From Candidatus Vogelbacteria bacterium RIFOXYD1_FULL_46_19 (GTDB taxonomy: Bacteria > Patescibacteriota > Minisyncoccia > Phycocordibacterales > XYD1-FULL-46-19), in the NCBI GenBank assembly GCA_001824825.1, contig MHTK01000006.1:127842-191841 (forward strand): a DNA stretch of 64,000 bases. Direction: 5' to 3'. This document shows positions 9,794 through 55,259 of this stretch, piece by piece. A program made the position numbers and the translations under genes. The notes under the pieces are model-generated. The model had not been told where the DNA came from. It did not search any database and was given only the letters and a program-made list of their open reading frames with translations. The stretch's first letter is position 1; each line of letters starts with the position of its first letter.

Positions 9794-9853
9794 TCTTTAT
9801 AAACAAAGAGGTCGCCCAACCGAAATTGGACGACCTTCAATAGGTAAAAGACA

Positions 9854-10234: not shown

Positions 10235-10313
10235 TTACCCACCCTCCTTTCTATCTATTATTATATATCAGTTTTACTCAAAAGTCAAGACTTGTCTAGA
10301 TAGGACCCTAATC

Positions 10314-35050: not shown

Positions 35051-35170
35051 GTCAGTCTAATACTTTCATCCCTAAATTTCTAGATCTCGATCGATTAAAT
35101 TTTATGCTAAGATTAGGTTCTAGATTAATACCTTTAAGCTAGACCCTTTAACCTTTCAACTCTCAAACTT

Positions 35171-36373: not shown

Positions 36374-36378
36374 ACCTC

Positions 36379-38292: not shown

Positions 38293-38295
38293 AAT

Positions 38296-39836: not shown

Positions 39837-39917
39837 TTCTTTATTGTAACGTTATTCTAGCTCAGCCTCAATCTAAACTTTTAAATAACCAAATTTAATA
39901 GCAAATAAGCACTCAGA

Positions 39918-40667
39918 TTATTTCGTTGGCTCAATATTAGCAATGAATTTTTTTATCAATTCGGCCGTCATGGCGGGATCGGTTACTGGATAACATTTAA
40001 CCCCGGCCTCGTAAGCTGAATAATCATTGCCCCCGGGAAACATCGCGTCCCCCACAAACACTGCCTCAGCTGGCTCGAGCCCTAGCCTCTCCAGTATTTT
40101 TTTTATACCAAAAGCTTTATTAAATCCTTTTTTAGAAATATCAATCGAAGTCATACCGCCAATACCAATTTCAAATTCCGGCAGTAATTCGAGCAATCGA
40201 GCTCTCATTTTTTTTCTTATTTCTCGGTCACTGTCATAATCACTTTTAAGATCAAGGGGGGCCGCTTGACCCAGGGCTGAATAGGTCATTTGACTGCCGC
40301 GGTCTTCGATCGCTTCCCCAAACAGCTCCCCAGCCGGCTCAACTATAACTTCGGCTAGAGCCGCTTTGATTTTGGTTTTATCCTCTGCCGTTAAATTATT
40401 ATTGTAAACATTCTGCCAGCCTTCATTATATTCATATAGAGAGCTACCACTGGCTGGCAGTAAATAAAGATTTTGGCGGAGTTCATCATTTAGCTCCAAC
40501 CGAGGAACAAACTGCGTCAAATATTGATCAATACCAGCCCCGGAGATGACCGCTACCTTGGCTACAGCCAGTAATCTGGCTACTAATTTGACCATCCCCA
40601 GCTCAATCACACTTTTACTCGGCGCCAAAGTGCCGTCTAAATCAAAAATGTGGAGTTTTATCATCAC
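39918..40667 (-). CDS. Eukaryotic-type phosphomannomutase (HAD superfamily, PMM/Sec53 family)
   Basis: HAD motif I FDLDGTL. C-terminal FVGDAMFPGGNDYSAYE matches PMM FFGDKTMPGGNDHEIF. Confidence 0.65.
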   Translation of the reverse strand: MMIKLHIFDLDGTLAPSKSVIELGMVKLVARLLAVAKVAVISGAGIDQYLTQFVPRLELNDELRQNLYLLPASGSSLYEYNEGWQNVYNNNLTAEDKTKIKAALAEVIVEPAGELFGEAIEDRGSQMTYSALGQAAPLDLKSDYDSDREIRKKMRARLLELLPEFEIGIGGMTSIDISKKGFNKAFGIKKILERLGLEPAEAVFVGDAMFPGGNDYSAYEAGVKCYPVTDPAMTAELIKKFIANIEPTK

Positions 40668-40831
40668 CCTATCATAACAAATTCAAACCCAACCGGCATT
40701 CCCATATTTTCTCTTAGTCCCACTTTGGCACTTGAGTCAACTTGATTATATAATAGATGAAATAGTTACCATCTTGGCGGCTTTGCCCCTTCTAGTCTTT
40801 TTTACTCTGATTATCGCTGACCGCCGGTAGT

Positions 40832-40978
40832 ATGATTGCCCCTCACAATGTGATTACCGCTTTAACCGTAGCAGAACTCGCTAGCGGTGACAGTAAAGTC
40901 ATTAAGGCTAATCCGCCACCGCTTTTAATTTATTTAGTTCTACTTAGTCTGGTCGGATTACTCATCTCTGCTATATAA
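40832..40978 (+). CDS. Possible 48-aa small membrane peptide in intergenic region
   Basis: Manual translation MIAPHNVITALTVAELASGDSKVIKANPPPLLIYLVLLSLVGLLISAI. No recognisable RBS. Weak. Confidence 0.15.
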   Translation: MIAPHNVITALTVAELASGDSKVIKANPPPLLIYLVLLSLVGLLISAI

Positions 40979-41014
40979 TGAGTCGGACGGCAATATTATG
41001 TTAAAATTTACTTT

Positions 41015-42016
41015 ATGAATATTACTTGCGTTGAAGTTCGAGAGGAAGAGAAAATTTTTTTTGAACAGGAATTACCTACCGCCAAGCTACTGGCTGAAAA
41101 ATTAGACAGCTCTATGTTGTCTACTATTAGAGACACGGAGATTTTATGCGTGTTCGTCGACTCACTGGTCACCAAAGAAGTGATTGATGCCTTACCCCAC
41201 TTACAGTTGATTACTACCCGTTCCACTGGCCTCGACCACGTCGATACCGCTTACGCGACCAGTAAGGGTATAACGGTCACCAATGTCCCCGGCTACGGTA
41301 AACGCTCGGTGGCGGAATTTGCTCTAGCTTTGCTTTTAACTTTATCGCGCAAGATTTTCGACGCCTATCACCAAGTCCGCTTCAATGGCGACTACAGCTT
41401 CAAACATCTGCGTGGCTTTGACCTTGGTGGTAAAACTCTCGGCATTATAGGTACCGGCCAAATTGGTCGCCACTTGGCTCAGATTGCTAGAGGTCTCGAG
41501 ATGACAGTCCTAGCTTACGATGTCCAGCCTGATCCAGCCATTGCCACATCTTTAGGCTTTACTTATGTCGATTTTGATACACTCCTCTCAGGAGCCGACA
41601 TCATTTCCCTCCACGTCCCCCTTCTGCCCGCCACTCGACATTTATTAAATCGGGACACTTTAGCCAAAACCAAACCCGGAGTTTACATCATCAACACCGC
41701 CCGCGGTGAATTGATTGATACCACCGCCTTAATTGAAGCTTTAAACAGCGGCCAAGTGGCGGGGGCCGGCCTAGATGTGCTCGAAGGTGAAAGTGAATTA
41801 AAAGATGAAGTTGAATTAATCTCTGGTGGCCAGCAAATGGCCGATGTCCAAGTAATGCTAGAAAATCACATCCTCACCGATATGCCCCAGGTCGTGGTGA
41901 CACCCCACATTGCTTTCTATTCTAAAGAGGCCGAACGCGAAATCGTCCAAACCAGTATCAGTAATATTAAGTCCTTTATGAAGGCTACCCCCACTAATAA
42001 AGCACAGGCTCTATGA
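41015..42016 (+). CDS. D-isomer-specific 2-hydroxyacid dehydrogenase (glycerate/hydroxypyruvate/D-lactate dehydrogenase family)
   Basis: NAD-binding GIIGTGQIGRHLA. Catalytic R...E...H pattern in the C-terminal half. Confidence 0.85.
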   Translation: MNITCVEVREEEKIFFEQELPTAKLLAEKLDSSMLSTIRDTEILCVFVDSLVTKEVIDALPHLQLITTRSTGLDHVDTAYATSKGITVTNVPGYGKRSVAEFALALLLTLSRKIFDAYHQVRFNGDYSFKHLRGFDLGGKTLGIIGTGQIGRHLAQIARGLEMTVLAYDVQPDPAIATSLGFTYVDFDTLLSGADIISLHVPLLPATRHLLNRDTLAKTKPGVYIINTARGELIDTTALIEALNSGQVAGAGLDVLEGESELKDEVELISGGQQMADVQVMLENHILTDMPQVVVTPHIAFYSKEAEREIVQTSISNIKSFMKATPTNKAQAL

Positions 42017-43287
42017 GTACCTCCATCATCAACCGCCACAACTTAGCCACCACCCCCTTGCGCGAGCAAGCCCTCAGTATTATCGAAGCAGGTCTTGAAG
42101 CTATTGATACCACCCGAGCTATTAATAGATCTATCAGTCTCGACTCAGACAATAATTTAATCGTGGCCGGCCAGACTTTTTCTCTGGCCAACAAAAAGCG
42201 TATTCAGGTTATCGGTTTTGGCAAAGCCTCTTGCTTGGCCGCTATGGCCTTGGAAAAAATTTTGGGTTCAAGCTTGCACTCCGGTGTCGTGATTGACGTA
42301 AAAAAAACGTCTTGTGAGCTCATTTACGCTTTTGAGGGCTCTCACCCCAAACCCACCATCGCCAATGTTAACGCTTCAGCTAAAATTGTGGAACTGGCCC
42401 AGTCGGTCGGTCCGGATGATTTGGTGATTGTCATTGTGTCCGGTGGTGGCTCGGCTCTTTTATGCTGGCCCTTATCCGAGTATGAGCAAAATATTATTCT
42501 CTACGAAAAGTTCCTTCAAGCTGGGGGCACCATCCAAGAACTAAACCTAGTGCGCAAACACTTATCCGGCTTAAAAGGCGGCGGTCTGGCCGCTATGTTG
42601 CATCCGGCCACGGTTATTGGTTTGGTTTTTTCCGATGTGCCCGGTGGACATATTTCCGATATTGCTTCTGGTCCCACCTTTTACGATGAGTCCACTGTGG
42701 ATGAGGCTAAGGCAATTTTACACAAGTACAATATTACCGATGAATTCACTTTGATCGAAACCCCAAAAGATCAGACTCTTTTCCAAGGCGTTCACAATTT
42801 TTCTCTAGTCACTAATGAACTAGCCTTAAAGGCAATGACCGATCGAGCTAAAGCTTTAGGCTTTACCGCCACCATTATTTCCCCCAAAATGTATGATTTT
42901 GCCGCCCCAACTCTGGAAACTTTTTGGCAAACCACGCCCCCTGGTGGGGCCTCGGTCGGTGGTGGTGAAATTCGGCTAGTGGTCTCTAAAAGTGGTGGCT
43001 CGGGCGGTCGCAACCTTTACCTGGCCAATGAAGCCTTGAGTCGCATTAAAGATGAAGATGAGCTATTTGTTTCTTTCGCTTCCGACGGTATCGACAACTG
43101 CCCAGCAGCCGGTGCCCTAGTAGACCATAAGACCCTAGCTGCTGCCCAAGCTTTAAACTTAGACGTAGCCGACTACCTTAGCCGTTTCGATAGCCAGGCC
43201 TTATTTGAGCAAACTGGCGACCTCATCATGACCGGGCCGACTGGCTCCAACGTGGCCGACTTGATGATGTATCTGCGAACGCAGTAA
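42013..43287 (+). CDS. Glycerate kinase (MOFRL family, glycerate 2-kinase type)
   Basis: IVSGGGSALL, LSGLKGGGLA, a DUF4147+MOFRL-like pattern. Start overlaps the upstream stop (ATGA). Confidence 0.7.
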   Translation: MSTSIINRHNLATTPLREQALSIIEAGLEAIDTTRAINRSISLDSDNNLIVAGQTFSLANKKRIQVIGFGKASCLAAMALEKILGSSLHSGVVIDVKKTSCELIYAFEGSHPKPTIANVNASAKIVELAQSVGPDDLVIVIVSGGGSALLCWPLSEYEQNIILYEKFLQAGGTIQELNLVRKHLSGLKGGGLAAMLHPATVIGLVFSDVPGGHISDIASGPTFYDESTVDEAKAILHKYNITDEFTLIETPKDQTLFQGVHNFSLVTNELALKAMTDRAKALGFTATIISPKMYDFAAPTLETFWQTTPPGGASVGGGEIRLVVSKSGGSGGRNLYLANEALSRIKDEDELFVSFASDGIDNCPAAGALVDHKTLAAAQALNLDVADYLSRFDSQALFEQTGDLIMTGPTGSNVADLMMYLRTQ

Positions 43288-43309
43288 TTACCAATCTCTT
43301 TTTTAAAAT

Positions 43310-44113
43310 ATGAAAAAAATCTCCAGTGCTCAAATTGTGGCCACTCTCGGACCGGCTTCCAGTGACCCTGTACTTTTAGCGAGAATGATCGACTCCGGTC
43401 TCGACGCAGTCCGCCTTAATTTTTCTTGGGGTACTTTAGACGAACACGCGGCTTACATTGAAGCTGTCCGCCAGCTGGCTCCCACGCTACCAATTATTGG
43501 TGATTTACCAGGTCCTCGAGTCCAACAGGGAGATGGTCATTCTTTTGATAACAACCAGCCGGTATTAACGGCTCGTGACCGGGACTTCATTACTTTTGCC
43601 GCCGAGCAGGGTCTAGACTACTTGGCCCTTTCTTTTATTACTAACGCCGGCGATATGGCCCAGGCTAAAGAATTGATCAGAGCGGCCGGCAGTCAGGCGC
43701 GCGTCATTGCTAAAATTGAACGAGCTGAGGCTTTATTAAACTTACCAGAAATTATAGCCGTCTCGGATGCAGTAATGGTGGCTCGAGGCGACTTAGGCGA
43801 TAATATTCCGGTCGAGACCTTGCCGTTTGTGACAGTGGAAATAATTGAGGCTACTCGAGCCGCCGGCAAACCCGTCATCACGGCGACGGAAATGCTATCA
43901 TCAATGGTTAACTCCCCACGGCCAACCCGGGCCGAAGTGACCGATATTGCTTACGCTATTACCAATGGCTCGGACGCCTTGATGCTTTCGGAAGAAACGG
44001 CTACCGGTCATTACCCTTTAGAAGCAATCACTATGATGGAAAAAATTATCATTGAAGCCGAGCACCGTAGCGCCGGTAAGCACGAAGCGGTCAACCGACT
44101 CACTCGGGTCTAA
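43310..44113 (+). CDS. Pyruvate-kinase-like TIM-barrel-only protein (lacks lid B domain and C-terminal domain; catalytic Lys substituted)
   Basis: Collinear with the A-domain of host pyk (IVATLGPAS, VRLNFSWG, MVARGDLG, GKPVITATEMLSSM). The approximately 100-aa B domain is replaced by 20 aa. No C domain. DLPGPK to DLPGPR and LQKMII to VTVEII. Confidence 0.7.
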   Translation: MKKISSAQIVATLGPASSDPVLLARMIDSGLDAVRLNFSWGTLDEHAAYIEAVRQLAPTLPIIGDLPGPRVQQGDGHSFDNNQPVLTARDRDFITFAAEQGLDYLALSFITNAGDMAQAKELIRAAGSQARVIAKIERAEALLNLPEIIAVSDAVMVARGDLGDNIPVETLPFVTVEIIEATRAAGKPVITATEMLSSMVNSPRPTRAEVTDIAYAITNGSDALMLSEETATGHYPLEAITMMEKIIIEAEHRSAGKHEAVNRLTRV

Positions 44114-44148
44114 CAACTATATTCCTTTACTGGCTTACGCTTTTTAGA

Positions 44149-45429
44149 TTAGAAACCCAGTTCACTCCGACTAGCGAAGGCCCCCTCTGACCCCAGCTCT
44201 TCTTCAATTCTAAGGAGTTGATTGTATTTAGCAGTGCGTTCGCCCCGGCACACTGAGCCGGTTTTAATTTGCCCACAGGCGAGACCCACCGCGAGATCCG
44301 CAATGGTCGTATCCTCAGTTTCGCCTGAGCGATGAGACATAATAGTTCGCCAGCCGGCGGCCTGAGCTGCTTTCACCACGGCCATCGTTTCAGTTAGGGT
44401 GCCGATTTGATTGGGTTTAATTAAAATCGCATTAGCGGTCTGACCTTCTATGGCTTTAGTCAAACGCTCCAAATTGGTGACCAATAAGTCGTCACCTACT
44501 ATTTGTATTTTTGACCCGAGCACCTTAGTCATCTGTCCGAAATTATCCCAATCATCTTCCGCTAAACCATCCTCAATTGAAACTATAGGGTACTTATTGA
44601 TCCAGGTTTGATACAACTCCATCATTTCAGACGCCTCAAGCGACCTGCCTTCCGATTTAAGTAGGTACTGCCCGTCTTGATAAAACTCGGTCGCTGCCAC
44701 GTCGAGAGCGAGCCCTACCTCCTCACCCGGCTTAAAACCAGCCTGACTGATTGCCTCCATTAAAAGCTCTAGCGCTACCTCATTGGTAGGTAAAATCGGA
44801 GCAAAACCACCTTCATCCCCCACGGTTGTATTAAGCCCCCGACCTTTTAGTATGTCTTTTAACGCTTGAAAAACCTCTACCCCCACCCGGAGAGCTTCCT
44901 GGTAGGTCGGCGCCCTCAGTGGCATAATCATAAACTCCTGTAAGTCGGTTGAATTACTAGCGTGCTGGCCCCCGTTTAAAATATTAATCATTGGTCGAGG
45001 CAAAAGTAGTTTAGTGGTCCCGGCCAGTTCTCCCACGTAGCGATACAGTGGCCAATTAGTCGCCGCGGCAGCCGCTTTGGCAAAGGACAAGGACACCGCC
45101 AAAATAGCGTTAGCCCCTAAGTGGCTTTTATCCGCTGTCCCGTCAAGTTCTATCAGTTTTTTATCTAAACTCTCCACCATCCAAGTCTCACCCACTAGCG
45201 CGGGCGCTATCACCTCATTAATATTTTCCACCACCTGCTTCACTCCCCGGCCCCGGTAACGCTCGCCACCATCTCTAAGCTCTACCGCTTCATGACTACC
45301 AGTGGACGCCCCCGACGGCACCGCTGCCCGCCCCCGACTTCCACCCTCCAGTGTCACATCTACCTCCACCGTCGGCTGGCCGCGCGAGTCCAAAATTTCC
45401 CGACCCTTGATTGAAATTATTTTAAACAA
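44149..45429 (-). CDS. eno: Enolase
   Basis: Full-length enolase with [33 protein letters not shown]. Confidence 0.95.
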
Positions 45430-45598
45430 AATAGATTCACGAGTTACTTTTAATTAACTCACTCTATCACTTAAGCTATCATCCGAGCAAGATTTTTTAA
45501 CATCTTACCCTAAATTAAGTAAAAATCCCCACACCCAATGACGGATGTGGGGAAGCGCGTGTGTGGGTGGACCATTGGTAGGCCCGCCACCAAACTAT

Positions 45599-45624
45599 TG
45601 TACATAAAATCATATTTATGTACA
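45599..45624. promoter_or_regulatory. Perfect 10-bp inverted repeat (TGTACATAAA-N6-TTTATGTACA), operator-like
   Basis: Seen directly. Lies at the left edge of the cassette region. Confidence 0.3.
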
Positions 45625-45832
45625 AGTTTTTAAAGAAGTAAGTTAGATAAAAAGCCAACCAGTCGCGACATCGAGAGGGAATTATTTTTGGAACGAACGA
45701 GCTTATTCATGAGGAGCTACTCGTCTCACGAAACTGTCATACAGGACACAATACCAAGTGGGGTGACTCTGAATATTTGAATAATGCCCCCTCGAGCTGA
45801 CCCTTTGTCCTTTTTCACTCCTTGATATAGAG

Positions 45833-46072
45833 TTAACGAAGTTTGTCCTCCGCCCGCCGAACCAGTTCCGCTAGGGGGACTTGGAGAACATTAGAAAACA
45901 CCATCAACGTTGTGAGAGACCCACACCCCGCCACTTCGTTATTGCTGACAGAGGCTTGGGTCAATCTGCATAATTGGGCCAATTGAACTTGGGTTAGGTT
46001 TTGAGCCTGACGTTCACTTCGAATTACCCGCCCCAAAGCCCTCTTAAGTTCTTTACCCTTTAACTTTTTCAT
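45833..46072 (-). CDS. XRE-family helix-turn-helix transcriptional regulator (79 aa)
   Basis: LTQVQLAQLCRLTQASVSNNE HTH pattern. Confidence 0.6.
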   Translation of the reverse strand: MKKLKGKELKRALGRVIRSERQAQNLTQVQLAQLCRLTQASVSNNEVAGCGSLTTLMVFSNVLQVPLAELVRRAEDKLR

Positions 46073-46229
46073 CCCAACCCTTCCTTTCCGCTCGATTTTT
46101 CTAATTATATTTATATCACATCTAGACTAATTTTCTAGCAACCAAGCTCCCTTCTCATTTTAAGTTAGAGGTATAAAAAAGGAGCCTGCCTATAGCAAGC
46201 TCCAAAAACCCTAGAGTATGTTTAACGTC

Positions 46230-46298
46230 TACACTCCAAAGACTAAAGAACTCCCCTTACAGCAGTGGCTAACCCGAGGACACATAAAACGCTTCATG
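46230..46298 (-). CDS. Possible 22-aa Cys-rich micro-ORF (MKRFMCPRVSHCCKGSSLVFGV) with strong RBS and terminator
   Basis: Manual translation. gagaaaggaggtgaga precedes the ATG. ggagc-ttgctataggcag-gctcc plus tttttt follows. Confidence 0.2.
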
Positions 46299-46439
46299 CT
46301 CTCACCTCCTTTCTCTTTTTATTATATCATAGCTGTCAAGACTGATAGGAATGATGCTTCTTAAAAGTTTAGGGAACTATATTATTAGGTAAAACAAAAA
46401 ACGCCCGCCAACGAAAATCGTTGGAGGGCGGTGATTTGT

Positions 46440-46688
46440 CTAAATCTCCAAAATCTTCATCAAGGAAATTATTACCAGACCTGCTCCAGCGAATCCAGCC
46501 AGGATTTCCAGTGGTCGAAACCTATACTTGATGTCTGGAGTTTCTGGTAAGAAAACCTTTACCACTGCCGCTAGTCCAGAAATGGCCAAGATGACCCAGA
46601 CAAAAACTGGCAACGGAAGGTGGTAAAACAGTGCCACGATGCCTGTAAGTTGTAAAAGACTACAAACAAAGTGTACTAACGCAACCAT
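46440..46688 (-). CDS. Small two-TM membrane protein (cassette cargo)
   Basis: RBS aaaaggagact. Followed by terminator cgcccgccaacgaaaatcgttggagggcg plus T-run. Confidence 0.45.
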   Translation of the reverse strand: MVALVHFVCSLLQLTGIVALFYHLPLPVFVWVILAISGLAAVVKVFLPETPDIKYRFRPLEILAGFAGAGLVIISLMKILEI

Positions 46689-46832
46689 GATTAGTCTCCT
46701 TTTCTCGGTTTAGTTTCTACCCTATTCCTACCACACCATTGTAAATTTGTTAACTTGTTTACACTTGGCTCCGCCGATTAGGTGAAGTGAGAAAATTAGG
46801 GTAAAAGAAAAGGCCCAAGTATTTGGGCCACA

Positions 46833-47333
46833 CTACTCAAGTCCCCAACCTACTAGAGCTGGGAACTTCTTAACCTGAATCTCTCTTGAAGCATGAATGA
46901 CTCTTTTAAGTTGACTGGAGAGTTTTCTGTCTGGTGGAAGATATAAACAAATGATCCCCGACTTATACCAAAGCATCACATTGATCTTTGACTCCAGAGA
47001 TTGGTTTGCAACCTCCCAAACTAAAGAATCAGCGGTGGCTCCTTCTCTGTATTCCCAGATCATTAAAACTGGGGCCAACAGATGATCCGTTAAAAAATAG
47101 TCGAGAACCACTCCAGAACGGTCGGGTCGATAAGACTCTTCTACCCAACCCTTCATCCACTCGCAGTGAAAGGCTTGGCAATTTCTTGGTCTGGTTGGAT
47201 AGATTTGACAAGAGTTTTCGGAACAGAACCGACAAGTCTCGTTCATTCCTTTTTTTAGTTCAGCCACAGCGTGAGTTGTGCAGCAGGCTGTGCAACCACC
47301 GCAGACACGGGTTGGTTTTTGAATTACCGACAC
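46833..47333 (-). CDS. YkgJ-family CxxCxxCC zinc/iron-chelating domain protein (cassette cargo)
   Basis: VCGGCTACCTTHA...CRFCSENSCQ...CQAFHC. GTG start 7 nt after AGGAGGT. Confidence 0.5.
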   Translation of the reverse strand: MSVIQKPTRVCGGCTACCTTHAVAELKKGMNETCRFCSENSCQIYPTRPRNCQAFHCEWMKGWVEESYRPDRSGVVLDYFLTDHLLAPVLMIWEYREGATADSLVWEVANQSLESKINVMLWYKSGIICLYLPPDRKLSSQLKRVIHASREIQVKKFPALVGWGLE

Positions 47334-47507
47334 GAGTATCACCTCCTATCCAGTTACGTTTCTCCCCTATTCCTACCACAACATTGTAGATTTGTTAACT
47401 TGTTTACACTGGGCTCCGCGGGCTCGAGGAAGTGAGAAAATTAAGGTAAAAGAAAACCGCCCAACCTTGAAGCTGGGCGGTCTGATCTGTTGAAAAGCCT
47501 TCCACCA

Positions 47508-47876
47508 CTACCTGCTGGCAAACCCTCCAGGCGACAGCAAAATGAAAACAAAGAATCTGAGTCCTCCCATCGACAACCTCAAGCGTTCGAAAATCCGCTC
47601 TGTCCGCTTTTGGATGTTCGCCCGTCGCGACGGAAAGTCGATTGCTCGAATCTCGATCTCAACGTCGAAATTACTCGGACCATCCTTTTCGTGTCGCTCG
47701 CGGAAGCGGATCTCGAGATCGTGAGCAACCAGCCTGGCCCCGGGTTCCTCGGCCGAGAGTTCCGCGGGAACAATGTCCCAAATTTCCCGATAGAGTGTCC
47801 TCAACAAACGATCAAATTGCTCCGAGTCGATTTTATTGCGGTCGGCTAATACTTCTACAATAGGCATAAGATCACC
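47508..47876 (-). CDS. Tautomerase-superfamily-like protein with N-terminal Pro1 (cassette cargo)
   Basis: The start MPIVEVLADRNKIDSEQFDRLLRTLYREIWDIVPAE parallels 4-oxalocrotonate tautomerase [51 protein letters not shown]. Driven by TTGACA-17-TATAAT at about 48040. Confidence 0.35.
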   Translation of the reverse strand, partial: GDLMPIVEVLADRNKIDSEQFDRLLRTLYREIWDIVPAELSAEEPGARLVAHDLEIRFRERHEKDGPSNFDVEIEIRAIDFPSRRANIQKRTERIFERLRLSMGGLRFFVFILLSPGGFASR

Positions 47877-48225
47877 TCCTCTCCGGTTTCGTTTCTTCCC
47901 CATTTCTACCAGAGTTTGAGGAAAAACAAAAGCACTCTACGCAAATCCACACGAGAGTGCTCTTACCTTGTTACTACTAGCAACAAAGCGTTGGTCCCAG
48001 CAGGACAGCCATGCAGGTCTTCATTTCTATACTTTTTTTATTATATATCTATATAGTATATCTGTCAATAGTTGCTCCGCCACCTGCTGTGCCGGGCTGT
48101 AGCTACAGGCGAAGAATGGGGGTGAATTGAGAAAGTTAAAGTTGAGATAAAAATCTTGCTTATATTAAAAAGACCGGAAGAAATGTTTCTCCCGGTCGCC
48201 CCACAATGGACTAACGAAATGATCG

Positions 48226-48429
48226 CTAGTAGCCTCGATTACGGACCGAAGCATCACGATCCTGACACGCAGCTTCGCGGCCTTGCTCGTGCTCATTGCT
48301 AAATTGCTCTGAGCCGAGCAGTCCGGCGAAACCACCAGATATCGCACCCGTGTTGGGGCTATCCGATTCAGCTTCGTAGCCTTTCTGGAAGCCGTCTGTC
48401 ACATGATCTTCCGGAGTTTCTCGTGCCAT
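48226..48429 (-). CDS. Small acidic protein (67 aa), cassette cargo
   Basis: RBS aagaaaggaggtgatatag-ATG. Confidence 0.4.
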   Translation of the reverse strand: MARETPEDHVTDGFQKGYEAESDSPNTGAISGGFAGLLGSEQFSNEHEQGREAACQDRDASVRNRGY

Positions 48430-48459
48430 CTATATCACCTCCTTTCTTAGAAAATTTCC

Positions 48460-48558
48460 CTACACGAGGGGTGGACGGTGGTCGAAAGGATCGATCTCAA
48501 TCTGATCTAATTCTCCACAAGTAGATCCTCCCTCTGGTGGCATATCCAACGTATTCAT
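48460..48558 (-). CDS. Possible 32-aa peptide with strong RBS (agggaggtgatccaa-ATG)
   Basis: Manual translation MNTLDMPPEGGSTCGELDQIEIDPFDHRPPLV. Confidence 0.25.
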   Translation of the reverse strand: MNTLDMPPEGGSTCGELDQIEIDPFDHRPPLV

Positions 48559-48841
48559 TTGGATCACCTCCCTTGCTAAAAGCAACTTACCCTAAGCCCC
48601 CAGATGAGCTTAAAGTTTGATCTGATCATAATGAAAACTTCATCTGTTGTCAAGGCTGTCGGTAATGCTCCTACAAATTTAACCCCTGTTAATTTGTTAA
48701 CCCTCAGCTCCACCGACTGTTTTACCAAGCCGTAGCCTGGTGGGCTAAGGATGGAGGAAGTGAGAAAGTTGGGGTAAAAGAAAAGACCCTGTTCACCATA
48801 CGGTTACTAAGGGTCTTTGTTTTTTGGAGTGCCTCGGCCGG

Positions 48842-49117
48842 CTACTGAGTCGGCCAATGCGCCAACTGGTCAGGCATCCGCTCAAGTGCGTGGACCGTGT
48901 CCTCATACCACGGGACACTGAGGTCGAAGTCGGGGCACTTGGATTCCTTTTCCCGCGCCAGCTCGTTGGCGGGCTGAAGGTCCCATTCGGAGGGGACCTC
49001 GTCGCCGACGCAGAACCCGGGGCAGTTCGGTTCCTCGATGAAGATGAACGTACCGTTCACCTCGCGAACAAGGCCGCCGCCCTGGGTCGAATAAACCGGG
49101 TAATTCCGTTCCATCAT
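48842..49117 (-). CDS. Hypothetical GC-rich protein (91 aa), cassette cargo
   Basis: Local GC is markedly higher than host. RBS ggaggtagtaagtc-ATG. TTGACA-17-TATACT promoter. Confidence 0.45.
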   Translation of the reverse strand: MMERNYPVYSTQGGGLVREVNGTFIFIEEPNCPGFCVGDEVPSEWDLQPANELAREKESKCPDFDLSVPWYEDTVHALERMPDQLAHWPTQ

Positions 49118-49213
49118 GACTTACTACCTCCATTGGTTGAAATTTTCACTCTATTTACTAGTATAACGTATTATACATTATTTGTCAAGTTCCTATGGTT
49201 TAGCACCACCCCC

Positions 49214-49268
49214 AGGTTCGCCCATCCTACCCACATACAAAAATAACCCCTTATTTCTAGGGTTATTT
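49214..49268. repeat. 55-bp noncoding module, copy A of a near-identical pair
   Basis: aggttcgcccatcctacccacatacaaaaataaccccttatttctagggttattt. Identical module at 52717-52770. Each is immediately followed by a tRNA-end repeat. Confidence 0.7.
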
Positions 49269-49534
49269 TGTGGGGCTCCGCGGGCAGACTCTCCCCCAAC
49301 GAGGGCTGGTACTTTTCCACCTCGCTTCGCTCGTAGAGAAAAGTCTTTCGAGTCCTGACGTGAGTGAAGCAGTTCACTCACTCCCGCGTCGCTCGACATA
49401 CGACAAAAGTCAGAACCTAGGTTCTGACTTTGTCTAGCTCGCTCCGCGGACTGTCTGAAGTGAGAACGTTGGGGTAAAAGAAAAGGGCCAAGCCAGTATT
49501 AAAACTGACCGGCCACAAGTAAACAGTGAGGGAA

Positions 49535-49831
49535 CTAGGGGCTCGAATTGAACGAATCTTGCTCCAAGAAAACGTCCCATTCTCGACCATCAATTACAAC
49601 TTCGAACGGTCCATAGGTCTGTGGTGGTCGGCGAGCCTCTTTTCCCTGAAAAATAACTTGACGCGCAATCTTTGGCGAGTCGAACCATTCCGGACTAGAG
49701 GTAAAAGTGATGGAACCACCCTCCACCTCGGGGTGAGACAAACAACTCACCGAGCCCACCATAGAAACGTGCGTCAATCCTGGTAAGGATGGTGGAATTT
49801 TAACCACCACCGAACCGACAGTTTGAGTCAT
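49535..49831 (-). CDS. Hypothetical protein (98 aa), cassette cargo
   Basis: RBS ggagaggaggtgacgtagt-ATG. Confidence 0.45.
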   Translation of the reverse strand: MTQTVGSVVVKIPPSLPGLTHVSMVGSVSCLSHPEVEGGSITFTSSPEWFDSPKIARQVIFQGKEARRPPQTYGPFEVVIDGREWDVFLEQDSFNSSP

Positions 49832-49932
49832 ACTACGTCACCTCCTCTCCGGTTTTGTTTCTCCTCTATTCCTACCAGATTTTAAGGAAAAAGAAAACCG
49901 CCCTCCAACGGTTTTCGTTGGGGGCGGGATCA

Positions 49933-50463
49933 TCAGATATTGAGAAGCTCGTTAAAACTCTCAAAATTGAGACATTGTAAAGGATCCTCCAATCCGTTAA
50001 GGTACAGATAAACACCCGGATGATCTGCCTCCTCCAACTCCTCCAAAACAATCTCCAATCTCGAGTTCCTGGCCAGAGACTCTGCTAGTTCGCGACCGAA
50101 CTTATCGGTTAAGTAACTGTCAAAGTCTTCAAAGACTTCCCCCTTACATAACAGGTCGCGCAAGGTCACACCGTTGGCTTCCGGAAAGATTGATGAGCAA
50201 ATACCAACAGGAAAGTCGAGCCAGACAGATTTTACTTCCCCTTCATTCACTCGACATACCAAAAGAGGTGGTGAATACGGTTTGCCAAACTTTATTGTCC
50301 CACCAATCAGTACCCGAATCTGAACTCCTTCCGGCTTTGCTGGTAGCCACCGTACATCTGTTACCTCCTTCCAGATGTCGCAGTGAAGTCCTGTAAACTC
50401 CCCCCAACTCATAGCATCTGTGTCAATGTCAGCTTTCATCCTGTAGATCCTTTCATGGTCCAC
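49933..50463 (-). CDS. Hypothetical protein (176 aa), cassette cargo
   Basis: Promoter TTGACT-17-TATTGT. Terminator cccgcccccaacgaaaaccgttggagggcgg plus T-run. Confidence 0.45.
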   Translation of the reverse strand: MDHERIYRMKADIDTDAMSWGEFTGLHCDIWKEVTDVRWLPAKPEGVQIRVLIGGTIKFGKPYSPPLLVCRVNEGEVKSVWLDFPVGICSSIFPEANGVTLRDLLCKGEVFEDFDSYLTDKFGRELAESLARNSRLEIVLEELEEADHPGVYLYLNGLEDPLQCLNFESFNELLNI

Positions 50464-50614
50464 AACTCTGTTTTTTACAATAGCACGTTATTATAACTAA
50501 GTCAACTATTACTCCGCGGGCTCGAGGAAGTGAGAAAATTAAGGTAAAAGAAAACCCCACTCCACCTTTACGGCAAGTAGGGCTTGTCACGTCAACACCC
50601 AAGTAAAATGAGAA

Positions 50615-51109
50615 TCATTTGAGAGGGTGAACGTCCGATCGAACCAAGTCACGAGAGTGGGCGTTGTCCCAAAAGTCGAGAAACTCCATTTGGGCCAGAA
50701 CCCACCCCAACCAACGAGCAAACTTTTCGCCATCTCCTTCCCACGTCATGTACCACATCTCCTGGATCATCCACAGGAGATACCCCAAAGGTGCTGGAGA
50801 AACACACCCTTGATGCCCTGCGCCCAGGGGCTTTAAGTCTGGGTCCCTAAGAAGTAGAGCCACTTTGATTGCTGCCCAGGTTCTGGGATAAAGAAGGGAT
50901 GATTTGTAGATAAAATCCCGCCTCCTCTCATCCCAGTGAACGATAGCATAGGTATCCCTATGTATGACTTCGTCACCGTCGACAGAGCAGACCCTACCGC
51001 ATATTACGCACGGAAACCCATCCTCCACTGAAGATTTTCCGTCTCTTTTGACCATGAGCGGATAACCCTTGGTCTGGTCAAGAGGATTACCACAAACACT
51101 GCAAGCCAT
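50615..51109 (-). CDS. Zinc-ribbon-containing hypothetical protein (cassette cargo)
   Basis: MACSVCGNPL...GFPCVICGRVC, two CxxC pairs. RBS ggagaggaggtgatattt-ATG. Confidence 0.45.
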   Translation of the reverse strand: MACSVCGNPLDQTKGYPLMVKRDGKSSVEDGFPCVICGRVCSVDGDEVIHRDTYAIVHWDERRRDFIYKSSLLYPRTWAAIKVALLLRDPDLKPLGAGHQGCVSPAPLGYLLWMIQEMWYMTWEGDGEKFARWLGWVLAQMEFLDFWDNAHSRDLVRSDVHPLK

Positions 51110-51222
51110 AAATATCACCTCCTCTCCGGTTTCGTTTCTTCCCTATTCCTACCACACCATCGTAAATTTGTTAACAACAAACCCGCCTCGCGACGAGTTT
51201 GTCGTCGGGGCGGGAAATACTT

Positions 51223-51537
51223 CTAGTAAATCCTTTCCCCCTTATGATTGATCAAAAATTCTTCACCGTTAAGAGAAACTCGTGCTTTCCCTTTGTGAAA
51301 GAAACCAACCTTATCAAATCTGCCATCATAAGCAGGACTACCATCGGGATGGATATGAAAAGCTGTGTCTCCCTCCCACACTTCGGCTAATCCTTCGTGA
51401 AAGTGGTCGGTGTAGTCATACCTTTGGGTATAGGCAGGGCTACCATCTGGGTGGATGTGCCACATCTTCTTACCATCACCTGTCCAGGCCAAGTCTTCGT
51501 GAAAGATTCCATGAACTTGTACTTCTTTAACTGTCAT
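51223..51537 (-). CDS. Repeat protein with duplicated HIHPDGSPAY motif (WG-repeat-like), cassette cargo
   Basis: Two copies of HIHPDGSPAY-x-(Q/G)R(Y/F)D. Confidence 0.45.
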   Translation of the reverse strand: MTVKEVQVHGIFHEDLAWTGDGKKMWHIHPDGSPAYTQRYDYTDHFHEGLAEVWEGDTAFHIHPDGSPAYDGRFDKVGFFHKGKARVSLNGEEFLINHKGERIY

Positions 51538-51781
51538 ACCAGGTCATCCCCTTTCCAAAGTTAGAGTTTGGCGTCTGGATATATTTCTAACATATTTAAA
51601 GATAAAGTACATAAGCTACTATATGTACATATTTAGCACCCCGCCGTTAACCCCCGGCTCGCCGACTGTTTTACCAAGCCGAAGCCTAGTTGGCGAAGGA
51701 TGGCGGGAAGTGAAAAAATTGAGGTAAAAGAAAACCGCCGGACGTGTAAGGCCCGGCGGCTCGATAAAAAAACTATGAGTA

Positions 51782-52531
51782 TCAATAAGTGACTCCGAAA
51801 AACTTCGCGAGTCGCAAGAGCCGAGATGCGCGCAGATTTTCCAGCTTCGTACTCAAGCGTCGATGAGAATCTTGGAGCTCGGAGCGCTGATCACGCAAGT
51901 CCTCGATCTTATGAAGCAGGCTCTTGACTTGAATCTGATGGGAGTGCCGAGACTCATCGAGCAAGACTTGCAATTCGTCGACTTGCTGCCGAAGGTTCGA
52001 AGCCTGCACAAAGTGCTTCCGGATTTCCGTGATCAACGCCTCTTTGGCAGTGGTGGCCATTTTTTCCGCTTTGACCGCCGCCTTCACCTCCTCAACTGTG
52101 GCATTCCCGGTCCAATAGCGGCAAAGGAGGTTGGCGTCCGGAACATAACAAGCCACCGATGTCCGCTTCTCGGAGGACGTGAATCGGTCATTACCGATCT
52201 GGACTTCGACCCAGTGGTTGTAGCCGTCGGAGTAAGCTTGCCCGACACGGTCGGAGGGACCGACAAATGGTGCGTGGCCATCTATCACAAGTTTATCCTT
52301 GTCCCACTCCAACGCAATGGTCCCAACCCACGGACGAGAGGAGATGGACGAAGCTACAGCTACCATTCCTCTTTCCCCTTTACGAGGGGTTACTGTAAGC
52401 GAATGGATCGTCTCACCACTCAAGGCACCAACCGGATCACTGGCACCAATAAGGATCATGGGAGGGCATTGGCCATTTCCGTCACACAGACGAAAACTTC
52501 CTACACCGTCGAGACATTTCGAGATCGCGTA
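51782..52531 (-). CDS. GC-rich protein with N-terminal Cys-containing domain and C-terminal coiled coil (cassette cargo)
   Basis: Perfect TTGACA-17-TATAAT promoter at 52650-52678 on the minus strand. C-terminal heptad-like QVDELQVLLDESRH...LRDQRSELQDSHRRL. Confidence 0.45.
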   Translation of the reverse strand, partial: YAISKCLDGVGSFRLCDGNGQCPPMILIGASDPVGALSGETIHSLTVTPRKGERGMVAVASSISSRPWVGTIALEWDKDKLVIDGHAPFVGPSDRVGQAYSDGYNHWVEVQIGNDRFTSSEKRTSVACYVPDANLLCRYWTGNATVEEVKAAVKAEKMATTAKEALITEIRKHFVQASNLRQQVDELQVLLDESRHSHQIQVKSLLHKIEDLRDQRSELQDSHRRLSTKLENLRASRLLRLAKFFGVTY

Positions 52532-52716
52532 CATGATTTTCAACCTTTCTTTCCAGTATCACTGGATAGGCATTCGGCGGCCATCGGCCTCCGAACTATG
52601 CAAACCCTGCACTAGGGGCCAGCCATTACCTAATGGCCAAACTAAACTTATTATATTTCATTAGTTACGCTTTGTCAATAGTGTGTCTTAATTCACTCTT
52701 GAATTGCACTATCCTA

Positions 52717-52770
52717 GGTTCGCCCATCCTACCCACATACAAAAATAACCCCTTATTTCTAGGGTTATTT
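52717..52770. repeat. 55-bp noncoding module, copy B
   Basis: See copy A. Confidence 0.7.
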
Positions 52771-53060
52771 ACGGGCTCCGCGGGCAGACTCTCGAGCTAC
52801 ACTCGCTGGTACTTTTCGTCTCACTCACCTATCGGCTCGCTCTCATCGAAAAATCTTTCTCGTCCTGACGTGAGTGAAGCAGTTCACAAGGCAGGACTCT
52901 TTCCTTACAGGAACTGTACACCTTTTAGCTAAAGTCTTCGCAGGCTCAACTTTAGGCTCAAAAGCTTTTCGAGTCCTGACGGAGGCAGCCCCACTGCCTC
53001 CTCCCGCGGAGCTCAAAAAATCAAAGCCCCCACTTTCGTGAGGGCTAAGATTTTTACGAG

Positions 53061-53133
53061 CTCCGCGGGCAGGACTCGAACCTGCGACCAATCGATTAAC
53101 AGTCGACCGCTCTACCAGCTGAGCTACCGCGGA
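53061..53133 (-). tRNA. tRNA-Asn (anticodon GUU)
   Basis: Folded by hand. Acceptor UCCGCGG/CCGCGGA. D-arm GCUC-AGCUGGUA-GAGC. Anticodon arm GUCGA-CUGUUAA-UCGAU (GUU). T-arm GCAGG-UUCGAGU-CCUGC. Discriminator G. 73 nt. No encoded CCA. Confidence 0.85.
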
Positions 53134-53208
53134 ATGTTTAGTTTTGTAAGAACTATCCAGCCACCATCTTTGATAGCCAGAATGATTGTTACAAGAGCAG
53201 CCGACACA

Positions 53209-53282
53209 CCGCCGACGCGTTCCGGCCTTGCGAAGCTCCAGGTCTTCGCTTCTCACTCCACCAACTGAGCTACCCGTCCGCC
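53209..53282 (-). pseudogene. tRNA-like remnant (5-prime half resembles tRNA-Asn; no valid acceptor or anticodon arm)
   Basis: GGCGGACGGGUAGCUCAGUUGGUGGAGUG resembles the tRNA-Asn 5-prime half, but the remainder does not fold as a canonical tRNA. Confidence 0.3.
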
Positions 53283-53420
53283 ATCGCAAGCTCAGGCGTT
53301 GCGGGCGGGCCGCGGAATATATTATTCTCCAGGAACACGAAAATCATACCAAAAACCGCTAAAATTGCAAAGGGATCAAGCCTTAGGCTAGACCTAAAAA
53401 TCTGCTATAATTGGCCCACT

Positions 53421-55259
53421 ATGTCTAAATCAAAAACCAAATCCCCGACCAAAACTGTGTCCCCCTCATCAAAACATATCTGGGACCTGTCCCCTTTGTA
53501 TCAGAGTGACACTGATCCTAAGATCGAAGCAGATCTCGCCCACTACCACCAACTTTCTTATCAATTCATCGACAAATGGAAAGATCGCACCGATTATTTA
53601 AAATCTCCACATATTTTAAAGGAGGCCTTGCATGACTACGAAGCTTGGCTCGAGGCGGGTGGCTCCTTGGGTGATATCGGCTATTATTTTTCGCTCCGCA
53701 GTGCCCAAGAAGAAAACAATCCGCAGCTGAAAGCCCGCTTAAACCAGCTAACCGACCTAGCCACCAAGATAGAAAATGACGCTCAATTTTTTACCATGCG
53801 CTTGGCCAAAGTACCAGCAGCCGCCCAAAAAAAGTTTTTACATAATAAAATTCTAGCCCACTACCACCACTTCTTAAAAAGATTATTTGATGAGGCTAAA
53901 TACCTCTTGTCCGAGCCGGAAGAAAAAATAATGAATTTGAAGTCAAACCCCGCCCACAGCCAGTGGGTCCAAATGACTTCATCACTACTAGCCAAAGAAA
54001 CTCGCCCCGTTTACGACAAAGATGGCAAACTCAAAAATTTGCCCTTGTCAGAGATCTCGAGCTTAATTTCTCATACTAGCCAAAAAATTCGTGACAAAGC
54101 CGCCGCCGCTATGAATGATATTTTAAGTAGTTTCACTGGCGTGGCCGAAGCCGAAATGAACGCTATTTTACTAAACAAGAAAATTAATGACGAGCTTAGA
54201 TGTTTAAGCCGGCCCGATACGAGTCGCCACCTGTCGGACGACGTAGAAACAGAAGTGGTGGACGCCCTCCTCGTGGCTGTCGAGGGCTTTTTTACCACCA
54301 GCCAGCGTTACTACAAACTTAAAGCCAAACTTTTAGGCAAAAAGAGGCTAGCCTACCACGAGCGCAATGTCCCCTACGGCCAAACGCGAGCCAACTATTC
54401 ATATGAGCAAGCGGTGGAGATAGTTGGGCGAACTTTCCAGAATCTGGACCAGGACTTTTATCGCCACTTTCAAAACTTTGTCGACCGCCGACAAATTGAC
54501 GTTTGGCCAAAGCCTGGTCGGTCAGCCGGGGCCTTTTGTGCCTCCGGCACTCCGAAGGCACCAGTGTACATTTTATTAAACCACACCAACCTACTCTCCG
54601 ATGTCTTAACCTTGGCCCATGAAGCCGGCCACGGTATTAATGATGAGTTTATGAAGACTAGCCAAGGCAGCCTCTATTTTGGTACCCCGCTCGTGACAGC
54701 CGAAGTAGCCAGCACTTTTACCGAGGACTTTGTCCTAACCGAGCTAATGAAATCGGCGGATGACGAAACCCGCTTAGCTTTACAACTAGCCAAATTAAAC
54801 GATGAAATTTCGACAGTGATGCGCCAAGTGGCTGCCTATCGCTTTGAGCAGGAACTCCACCTAGCCTTTCGCACCGAGGGTTATCTCTCATATGAACGTA
54901 TTGGGACTATTTTTACTAAACACATGAAAGCTTATATGGGTCCGGTGGTGGAGCAATCGGTCGGGTCGGGCAACTGGTGGATCTATTGGGGCCACTTCCG
55001 CAGTTTCTTTTACGTTTACTCTTACGCTAGCGGCATTATTATTTCCAAAGCCATGCAGGCTAAAGTAAAAAGTGATCCGGCCTTTATGTCTTATGTTAAA
55101 GACTTTTTACGCGCCGGTAGTTCGGCTACTCCTAGCGAAATTTTTGACCGCCTGGGTATTAATATTCGAGAACCGGCTTTTTGGCAAACTGGTTTAAAAG
55201 AAATTTCCGACCTACTAGTAGACACGGAAAAGTTAGCCAAAAAACTGGAAAAAGTTTAA
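53421..55259 (+). CDS. pepF: Oligoendopeptidase F (M3B family)
   Basis: HEAGHGINDEF zinc motif. Overall M3B length. Confidence 0.9.
   Translation: MSKSKTKSPTKTVSPSSKHIWDLSPLYQSDTDPKIEADLAHYHQLSYQFIDKWKDRTDYLKSPHILKEALHDYEAWLEAGGSLGDIGYYFSLRSAQEENNPQLKARLNQLTDLATKIENDAQFFTMRLAKVPAAAQKKFLHNKILAHYHHFLKRLFDEAKYLLSEPEEKIMNLKSNPAHSQWVQMTSSLLAKETRPVYDKDGKLKNLPLSEISSLISHTSQKIRDKAAAAMNDILSSFTGVAEAEMNAILLNKKINDELRCLSRPDTSRHLSDDVETEVVDALLVAVEGFFTTSQRYYKLKAKLLGKKRLAYHERNVPYGQTRANYSYEQAVEIVGRTFQNLDQDFYRHFQNFVDRRQIDVWPKPGRSAGAFCASGTPKAPVYILLNHTNLLSDVLTLAHEAGHGINDEFMKTSQGSLYFGTPLVTAEVASTFTEDFVLTELMKSADDETRLALQLAKLNDEISTVMRQVAAYRFEQELHLAFRTEGYLSYERIGTIFTKHMKAYMGPVVEQSVGSGNWWIYWGHFRSFFYVYSYASGIIISKAMQAKVKSDPAFMSYVKDFLRAGSSATPSEIFDRLGINIREPAFWQTGLKEISDLLVDTEKLAKKLEKV

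Follow-up and report, generated by a model that had tools for sequence, protein, structure and literature searches.

A hypervariable island of small, integrase-less gene units beside tRNA-Asn in a Candidatus Vogelbacteria genome, probably built by tRNA-end integration and cassette turnover

Small genes and boundary modules between enolase and tRNA-Asn

The 64-kb stretch of DNA analyzed here (hereafter, the window) comes from a 192-kb metagenomic scaffold of Candidatus Vogelbacteria bacterium RIFOXYD1_FULL_46_19, which is uncultured, lives in groundwater and belongs to the candidate phyla radiation (CPR; Patescibacteria), and it carries, between the genes for enolase and tRNA-Asn, an array of small genes separated by repeated sequence modules that include copies of the tRNA 3′ end. 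The array comprises 13 genes of 22-250 aa (the proteins of the region are OHA59557-OHA59569), all on the minus strand, as are the tRNA-Asn (53061-53133) and enolase (44149-45429) genes; an earlier reading of the sequence (the first-pass annotation) had the strand right and counted about ten genes of 32-250 aa. Beyond the tRNA lies pepF (oligoendopeptidase F; 53421-55259), 71% identical to pepF of Vogelbacteria RIFOXYD1_FULL_44_32, hereafter the sister species. Eleven genes, encoding proteins of 250, 104, 164, 168, 98, 91, 32, 67, 119, 166 and 82 aa in gene-strand order, are co-oriented within a variable island of 6.7 kb (46341-53060). A 22-aa peptide gene (46229-46297) and a gene for an XRE-type helix-turn-helix (HTH) protein (45833-46072; Pfam HTH_3, 6e-6) form a conserved flank outside it (45833-46297, minus strand), which is kept in L140, a lineage whose pepF is 95% identical to that of the window.

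The modules at the gene boundaries are made up of a terminator, a so-called D2 box, a core resembling the tRNA-Asn 3′ end, and a promoter followed by a 5′ untranslated region (UTR) box. As a 28-mer, the D2 box (gaagtgagaaaattaaggtaaaagaaaa; on the gene strand, TTTTCTTTTACCnnAAnnTTCTCACTTCC) occurs with at most three mismatches at five sites (46784, 47429, 48757, 50527 and 51707) against 0.00 expected, and nowhere else in the 64 kb; a sixth site at 49457 has 4-5 mismatches, in agreement with the six sites first reported for this element, and degenerate versions lie at 48124 and ~46390. The corresponding 29-nt boxes occupy 46783-46811, 47428-47456, 48756-48784, 49456-49484, 50526-50554 and 51706-51734 on the minus strand, and the module at 46769-46813 (minus) exemplifies a D2 box joined to a degenerate core. 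At 8-9 of the 11 gene terminators, D2 follows directly on from the T-tract, and the terminator stems all differ. D2 is then followed either by the short tRNA-like core (CTCGAGCCCGCGGAGCC; 47413-47423, 49441-49451 and 50511-50521 on the minus strand, with a degenerate copy at ~46770) or, at two junctions, by a shared segment termed D8 (51662-51706 and 48713-48757). To the right of the core the sequence varies, being the P1 promoter, another promoter or a terminator, and a recognizable core is present at only ~5 of the 11 junctions. The P1 module, TTAACA-17-TGgTAGGAAT followed by the 5′UTR box GAAACGAAACCGGAGAGGAGGTGA, is present in five copies on the minus strand (46692-46754, 47337-47399, 47870-47932, 49836-49898 and 51113-51175).

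Within the window, the modules are restricted to the island save for one P1-like site. This site (8911-8944) is part of a promoter/leader (GTTAACAAATTGATGTGGGTATGGTAGGAAT...) at 8880-8944 on the minus strand, upstream of a 151-aa open reading frame (ORF; 8422-8877), and could either signal another small islet or be a native type of promoter.

Promoter-like sites precede nearly every gene, and the gene strand carries 13 of 14 terminator-like hairpins; the overall counts are modestly above those of shuffled sequence (15 versus 8.4 promoters and 14 versus 9.0 terminators). A promoter and terminator for each gene, as originally claimed, is therefore nearly accurate, the exception being the 32-aa and 67-aa genes, which share one promoter. 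The "several" perfect promoters come down to two TTGACA-17-TATAAT sites on the gene strand (52678 and 48068), with two further sites matching at 11 of 12 positions. One perfect promoter (47925-48068, minus) is followed ~100 nt on by a terminator with no convincing ORF in between (at most a 15-aa peptide with no ribosome-binding site), a unit that may be a small RNA. An element said to recur in both orientations does occur twice, as one and the same palindromic terminator hairpin (46405-46432 and 49897-49924), in which the imperfect positions are swapped between the arms as if it had been flipped.

tRNA-Asn, the copies of its 3′ end and its flanks

The tRNA-Asn gene (GTT; ARAGORN; Rfam, 72 bits) is intact and constitutes the target at one end of the island, on the attL side; its 3′ end is given as 53060 or 53061. 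Its terminal 13-mer, GCTCCGCGGGCAG, recurs exactly at 49275 and 52775, and its 3′ 11-mer, GCCCGCGGAGC, is found with at most one mismatch at five positions of the tRNA strand (47413, 49275, 49441, 50511 and 52775) and in inverted orientation at 53002. Six copies in the island (counted over 7.6 kb) compare with 0.05 ± 0.22 in 500 dinucleotide shuffles and with none in the other 56 kb, well above chance. The four repeat sites listed in the first-pass annotation were correct, and the copies at 49441, 53002 (inverted) and ~46770 (degenerate) add to them. Seven tRNA-end-like copies divide the island into units, none of which encodes a recombinase.

Two of the copies belong to a longer repeat of ~175 nt on the minus strand. 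Copy A (52713-52887) begins with a hairpin and part of the T-arm in inverted orientation; the tRNA 3′ end is then repeated directly (CTCGAGAGTCTGCCCGCGGAGCC; 52773-52796), with a native-type, attR-like terminator and flank. Copy B (49211-49377) contains a tRNA 3′-end copy (49273-49290) and likewise a native-type terminator and flank. The two are 82% identical, each with a strong terminator after CTCGAGAGTCTGCCCGCGGAGCC or GGGGAGAGTCTGCCCGCGGAGCC, and as direct repeats they bracket a unit of 3.5 kb. What is native was judged from related species with tRNA-Asn: in L002/L088 the intact gene is followed by GAGCCCCTAAAAACAGCCCTAATAACATGGGTTGTTTTTGTA...AGGAGATAGAAC, and the native flank of L004, which has unrelated genes 3′ of its tRNA, is similar. 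The sequences that follow the tRNA-end copies at 52773 and 49273 (copies #2 and #3) align over more than 60 nt with this downstream flank of L002 and L004, and because the original flank has been retained, both copies look like displaced tRNA ends (attR-like).

The tRNA end is also the point at which assemblies of the sister species part. Four of them (L084/85, on the same contig as L082, and L086/87), all with identical pepF, fall into two types that are 100% identical over 746 nt, from pepF through the tRNA, and split exactly after the last tRNA base (...GGGGGAGC), which makes the tRNA-Asn 3′ end a demonstrable recombination hotspot. The L084/85 type goes on with the type-2 flank described below and with small genes. 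In the L086/87 type, what follows is a large serine recombinase gene in convergent orientation, entered from its 3′ end (OHA A2571_03465; a fragment; Pfam Zn_ribbon_recom, 5e-10). Recombinase genes are linked to tRNA-Asn in other CPR lineages as well: in L090, the gene at 8001-9170 overlaps the tRNA at 9129-9204, and the L089 contig stops in the tRNA T-arm directly past a recombinase gene (9123-10648 region). The post-tRNA flank is similar in L086, L089 and L090, reading CC(C/T)AT(T/A)GG(T/A)TG. These genes adjoining the tRNA in L086/87, L089 and L090 point to a clade-specific family of large serine recombinases that would target the tRNA-Asn 3′ end and that is encoded outside this window, in line with the cognate recombinase first proposed to reside in related genomes. 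Many database homologs of these recombinases are split or have no annotated catalytic domain, probably as a result of contig breaks at these places or of miscalled genes.

Adjoining the tRNA, at the left end of the inserted DNA, is the 170-nt type-2 flank (52890-53060, minus). It is made up of a terminator (53025-53046), the tRNA 3′ end in inverted orientation and interrupted by a hairpin (~52968-53020), and another conserved hairpin at ~52925-52971. The element is conserved in L082 and has two counterparts in L002, 16 pairs being altered on both sides (compensatory changes), and its inverted tRNA arm changes in step with the local tRNA. The element and the tRNA end are jointly predicted to fold into one forked hairpin (-63.7 kcal/mol, z -12.4). 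No Rfam family matched the element; in the Rfam scan (gathering threshold and E<=1) the tRNA alone passed, a sub-threshold SpF41 match merely overlapping it. A scan of sequence collections for the type-2 pattern gave 20 chance matches, none with extended similarity. The element could represent a recombinase site architecture, a single-strand-folded site or an RNA, and we regard it, the CCCATTGGTTG-type flank and the D2-core junctions as candidate attP sites.

Two further observations concern the tRNA gene itself. In the sister species (L082 1407-1683), as in L002 (~9200-9440), tRNA-Asn is interrupted in the anticodon loop by a group I intron (Rfam RF00028, 86 bits), which is why ARAGORN misses the sister-species gene; the tRNA-Asn genes of the window and of L004 have no intron. 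In addition, a conserved element 5′ of tRNA-Asn (window 53134-53330; L082 1180-1370) holds fragments of the tRNA 5′ half (TTCCGCGG; GGTAGCTCAGTTGGTGGAG at 53256-53274) and a hairpin, GAAGCGAAGACCTGGAGCTTCGC, common to the window and L082, and the L082 version resembles a pseudo-tRNA-Asn carrying an insertion.

Variation between strains and lineages, and the cargo

Comparison with L140 revealed a complete exchange of content next to a well-conserved backbone. The two sequences are 96.9% identical from 46340 to 40809, and homology starts exactly at the -35 element (CTTGACA, 46340) of the promoter of the 22-aa peptide gene, which sets the boundary of the variable island at 46341. Upstream of that point, 9.4 kb of L140 contain wholly different co-oriented genes. 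This foreign cargo has the same modules (D2 with CTCGAGCCCGTGGAGCC at 5604-5650, and a D2-like box with CTCGAGCCCGCGGAGCC, P1 and UTR at 6320-6440), found at just 2 of ~10 junctions. L083, from the same sample and the closest relative by pepF (95%), was uninformative since its contig ends before reaching the tRNA.

Changes on the scale of single cassettes are seen in two metagenomic contigs from the window's own population. L122 is 99.7% identical to the window from 53051 to 51720, then has ~85 unique nt, and resumes its match at 51176-51053; the unique stretch consists of a degenerate copy of the tRNA T-arm/acceptor (GGGTTCGGATGTTGTGGAGTAAG), a P1 variant and a UTR variant and leads straight into the 164-aa gene; the 104-aa WG-repeat cassette is thus missing from L122. 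In L141, identity to the window is 99.9% from 51132 to 46677, and the first 309 nt, including a divergent gene, are unrelated, with the breakpoint within the UTR box AAACCGGAGAGGAGGTGA. The 164-aa gene is thus found in three upstream contexts in the population (window, L122 and L141), bearing out the cassette presence/absence polymorphism that had been suggested between strains. Both sets of recent breakpoints map to repeated boxes (T-tract/D2 and P1/UTR) and not to the tRNA-like core, and they therefore point to recombination between regulatory modules rather than to site-specific cassette capture.

Between species, the modules recur beside different genes. In L082, D2 and the core (with P1) lie between unrelated genes for 319-aa and 93-aa proteins, and the core corresponds to the tRNA of the window type (CCCGCGGAGC) rather than to the local one (CCGGGGGAGC), which suggests that it was imported with a cassette. 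In L002, the module is 9 kb from the tRNA, after purH-fragment genes, and the equivalent position before a P1-type promoter bears the species' own tRNA variant, GATCCTGCCGGGAGCC. In the more distant genome L123, the module layout is the same as at the 50554 junction of the window. Thus, species that share only 71% pepF identity have nearly the same module, next to unrelated cargo; the cargo shared between islands amounts to a 170-aa gene (L084/L140, 66% identity) and a 52% identical relative of the 250-aa protein. A single metagenome scan for the module returned L082 only. A ParB-like assignment of the 319-aa protein, a guess, was dropped, as it had no Pfam match and marginal Ku70 matches only.

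The cassette genes, all on the minus strand, are mostly without recognizable relatives. The 250-aa gene (51782-52534), preceded by a perfect TTGACA-17-TATAAT (52650-52678), encodes a β-rich N-terminal part and a long C-terminal coiled coil; the protein has just two homolog clusters among 5.8 billion, no viral relatives were found, and its AlphaFold2 (AF2) model has a mean confidence (pLDDT) of 61 with one confident 100-residue helix. The 104-aa gene (51223-51537; Pfam WG_beta_rep, 3.8e-8) lies in a cassette with a D2 remainder/D8 leader and a terminator (51140-51720). It is followed by the 164-aa gene (50615-51109), with a Cys-rich N-terminus, the 168-aa gene (49933-50439), an orphan whose product found only itself among 1.84 billion cluster representatives, the 98-aa gene (49535-49831), with no Pfam or PHROG match, and the 91-aa gene (48842-49117). 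A two-gene cassette (48226-48558) holds the 32-aa (48460-48558; also called in L143) and 67-aa (48226-48429) genes behind a shared TTGACA-17-TATGAT promoter. Next come the 119-aa gene (47508-47867), the 166-aa gene (46833-47333), whose Cys-cluster product belongs to a phage-borne family (phrog_9155, 3e-8) with relatives in 27 viral contigs at 30-46% identity, and the 82-aa hydrophobic gene (46440-46688), the last cassette before the conserved backbone.

Beyond WG_beta_rep and the XRE HTH of the conserved flank there were no Pfam matches, and a sequence search of the 250-, 166- and 119-aa proteins against solved structures returned nothing. With a pLDDT of 65, the 119-aa fold is not interpretable; this value and that of the 250-aa model were too low to justify fold searches, and the label "tautomerase-like" found no confirmation. 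The anti-phage role put forward for the cargo receives no support from PADLOC, whose single match, a marginal coiled-coil one to LmuB (E 0.0017), we rejected as defence evidence. Our guess is that the cargo may be an expressed, fast-turnover accessory pool, partly phage-derived.

Some observations concern the annotation and the wider neighborhood. Public gene calls (L001/L131; window 50144-51109 and 51773-52459) read past TGA, giving 321-aa and 228-aa products that run across intergenic modules; an alternative genetic code was rejected and the read-through judged a gene-calling artefact, because housekeeping genes are intact under code 11. Beside enolase lies a truncated pyruvate kinase gene (43310-44113; 267 aa, barrel only), and a full-length one is present at 11666-13084. 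The distance from the DEAD helicase gene to pepF is 9 kb in L084 and 19 kb in the window, and given this difference in spacing the enolase-GH130-GH18 block (35000-45430) may belong to a larger variable region.

Origin of the island and its relation to known systems

On the basis of the repeats, the native-flank homology, the polymorphisms with their breakpoints, the recombinase genes that relatives carry at this tRNA and the modules beside unrelated cargo in other species, we read this region as a hypervariable tRNA-Asn-linked island of integrase-less units, built by integration at the tRNA end combined with module-mediated turnover of cassettes, a reading to which we assign a probability of roughly 0.7. 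In the proposed mechanism, DNA would integrate at the last bases of tRNA-Asn, the likely enzyme being a tRNA-Asn-specific large serine recombinase supplied by related elements elsewhere. If the P arm of such an element resembled the tRNA arm, as half-sites of one recombinase do, a tRNA-like arm joined to the native flank would be left at the far end, and each insertion would push this older DNA (tRNA-end-like arm and native terminator flank) deeper into the island. Copies #2 and #3 have the arm-plus-native-flank pattern expected of such integration. The second process, shown by L122, L141 and L140, is the gain, loss and replacement of one- to few-gene cassettes by recombination between the boundary modules, which also provide each cassette with its terminator T-tract, promoter and ribosome-binding leader. 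Units may still be mobile at present. Of the serial insertion at the tRNA 3′ end proposed in the first-pass annotation, the tRNA-derived repeats, the displaced ends and the hotspot hold up; as an account of the whole array it falls short, with a core at only ~5 of 11 junctions and recent breaks outside it.

Several points weigh against this reading. Neither the proteins of the island nor any window ORF of 180 aa or longer yielded a recombinase domain, in agreement with the first-pass annotation, which had noted the absence of integrase and recombinase genes. Simple serial insertion does not predict two attR-like units with native-type flanks, a duplication. Serine integrases normally leave very short direct repeats only, and to account for the tRNA-like copies of 11-24 nt, attP arms similar to the tRNA arm would have to be assumed. 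Approximately ten independently obtained assemblies follow the window collinearly at 99.9-100% identity, so that the array is stable in most of the sampled population, and both cassette variants are short metagenomic contigs (L122, 1.5 kb; L141, 4.8 kb). Finally, the strong conservation of D2 across species exceeds what homologous recombination alone explains; given the near-invariance of the 29-nt box, the D2-core could itself be a true recombination site.

This last point leads to an integron-like alternative, in which the promoter-bearing cassettes would be independently mobile, the terminator-D2-core would act as an attC-like site, and a recombinase acting in trans would join it to the tRNA-Asn end or to other D2-core sites. 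Consistent with this notion, D2 follows 8-9 of the 11 gene terminators, the same core is joined to several left and right arms, the module is nearly identical across species with 71% pepF identity next to unrelated cargo, the L082 core fits the window-type and not the local tRNA, and tRNA-Asn-specific recombinases appear to be present in the clade. An integron combines the tyrosine recombinase IntI, an attI site with the promoter Pc, and palindromic attC sites at the 3′ ends of mostly promoterless cassettes. Like integrons, the island is a one-directional array of small cassettes beside a fixed entry site, with a recurrent element at cassette 3′ ends; unlike them, it has no IntI-type tyrosine recombinase with attI and Pc in the window and no palindromic attC, its cassettes bear their own promoters, and its core is tRNA-derived. 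The D2-core contains no inverted repeat and no foldable attC-like site, the sole palindromes being ordinary terminator stems of unrelated sequence, and no integrase lies beside the array. Furthermore, a recognizable core is limited to ~5 junctions, with D2 and D8 at two others, the recent polymorphisms break outside the core, hardly any cassette is common to different islands, and L140 has the module at 2 of ~10 junctions. We therefore consider the integron-like array of the first-pass annotation unlikely. A Xer/dif-like junction, suggested by the Bacillus subtilis dif sequence (ACTTCCTCGAG ... TGTAAAC), was also rejected, because the arms would be separated by 11 nt and the right one varies.

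Alternatively, the island might be the decayed remnant of one or two larger elements (a prophage or satellite) at tRNA-Asn, the modules being its own early-gene promoter and terminator signals and the cassettes not being mobile. The 166-aa protein of a phage-borne family, the XRE regulator at the edge, the phage-like genes of related tRNA-Asn elements (e.g. GP3_package in L090), the identity of most assemblies and the 3.5-kb unit bracketed by ~175-nt direct repeats would all fit such an origin. The modules, however, recur in different species beside unrelated cargo, and L122 and L141 differ at cassette scale among strains that are 99.7-99.9% identical. No structural or replication genes are left in the island, blastn of the island against 50,697 phage records gave no match, and in 2.9 million viral contigs the D2 pattern had 0 matches and the D2-core pattern one chance match, in the RNA-virus contig L149. 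Altogether, we regard this explanation as improbable. The view that D2 and its neighbors are a shared regulatory motif and nothing else (a regulon of small genes, perhaps under the adjacent XRE protein, with a coincidental likeness to the tRNA) agrees with the constant position of D2 between terminator and promoter, with P1/UTR as plausible expression signals and with the P1-like site outside the island (8911-8944), but it is largely refuted by the shuffle statistics (6 tRNA-end copies against 0.05 expected) and the native-flank alignment, in which the similarity of copies #2 and #3 reaches 24-27 nt and continues into the flank, and it also conflicts with the tRNA variant proper to L002 at the equivalent position and with polymorphisms that map to modules.

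The island of integrase-less units thus has its closest counterparts among tRNA- and ssrA-linked genomic islands. As in islands of the Islander type, there is an intact target tRNA, there are displaced 3′-end direct repeats, and content is polymorphic among relatives; an integrase gene inside the island is absent. The ssrA islands of Dehalococcoides carry a CcrB-like serine recombinase gene beside attL on the reverse strand, form tandem arrays with 20-bp repeats of the target 3′ end, and include 15 islands without an integration module, which were read as cis-mobilizable (PMC3146451). In common with these genomic islands (ssrA-GIs) and with composites of the staphylococcal cassette chromosome (SCC), both of the CcrB family, the target of integration here would be the 3′ end of a small, essential gene present in single copy, and tandem islands are bounded by target 3′-end repeats, with many units lacking an integration module. 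A large serine recombinase gene adjoining attL on the reverse strand and reading toward the target is found in L086/87, L089 and L090, whereas the window has none. Further differences are the target (tRNA-Asn) and the CPR host, the size of the units (0.2-3.5 kb with 0-5 tiny genes versus ~10-60 kb), and the terminator-D2-promoter boundary module, which has no counterpart there.

Similarly, cis-mobilizable elements (CIMEs) are integrase-less DNA between att-like repeats, in tandem at one attachment site (PMC3146451, PMC5704250), and the accumulation of such units at a single site by accretion with integrative and conjugative or integrative and mobilizable elements (ICEs, IMEs) resembles the present case, which differs in its much smaller scale and in that no ICE or IME partner was identified. 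In Prochlorococcus, tRNA-proximal islands contain scattered partial tRNAs, and newcomers push older arrivals inward (10.1101/2020.12.28.424599). These tycheposon islands share with ours a streamlined genome, a position adjacent to a tRNA and partial tRNAs inside; unlike tycheposons, which have tyrosine recombinases and replication modules, the system here involves serine recombinases and single-gene units with shared regulatory modules. The units of the window, at first described as far smaller than known integrative elements, are better read against these four precedents as integrase-less remnants or cis-mobilizable units.

For the turnover of cassettes, the nearest parallel is offered by the promoter early stem-loops (PeSLs) of T4-type phages, promoter-terminator cassettes that form mini-circles and through which orphan genes are shuffled as modules (PMC2839356, PMC4122927). 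As with PeSLs, composite motifs of a sigma70-type promoter and a terminator flank small orphan genes, and indels or replacements between near-identical genomes (L122 and L141) break within the motifs. Unlike the hyperplastic regions of T4-type phages, the island is located on a bacterial chromosome with housekeeping flanks, and its motif adds a tRNA-derived core at a tRNA integration site. Accretion islands linked to tRNA or ssrA genes and PeSL-like modular shuffling are therefore already known, and the island is not a new kind of integron; what is new is the combination of the two mechanisms, the very small units (0.2-3.5 kb, 0-5 genes), the tRNA-derived core within a regulatory module, and the CPR host.

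A more speculative and, in our view, doubtful possibility is that the Vogelbacteria/Paceibacteria group of the CPR has its own cassette system, with single-gene, promoter-bearing, mostly orphan cassettes and a conserved boundary element of ~45-110 nt that combines the terminator T-tract/D2 box, a core like the tRNA-Asn acceptor and an outward promoter. A trans-acting tRNA-Asn-specific large serine recombinase would capture the cassettes beside tRNA-Asn and exchange them between species, with the forked-hairpin type-2 element as entry site. If so, it would be an analogue of integrons or pdif modules built on a serine recombinase and tRNA mimicry.

To our knowledge, CPR bacteria, with their tiny genomes, have no known conjugative machinery, and their acquisition of genes is poorly understood. 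Here, the content of a tRNA-Asn hotspot is replaced entirely between lineages whose flanking backbone is 97% identical, single cassettes change between near-identical strains, and boundary modules cross species and equip orphan genes with ready-made expression signals. The large serine recombinase family of this clade and its putative attB, the tRNA-Asn 3′ end, form a testable pairing and a possible tool for genome engineering, and the island may offer a natural system in which to follow the recruitment and expression of orphan genes in minimal genomes.

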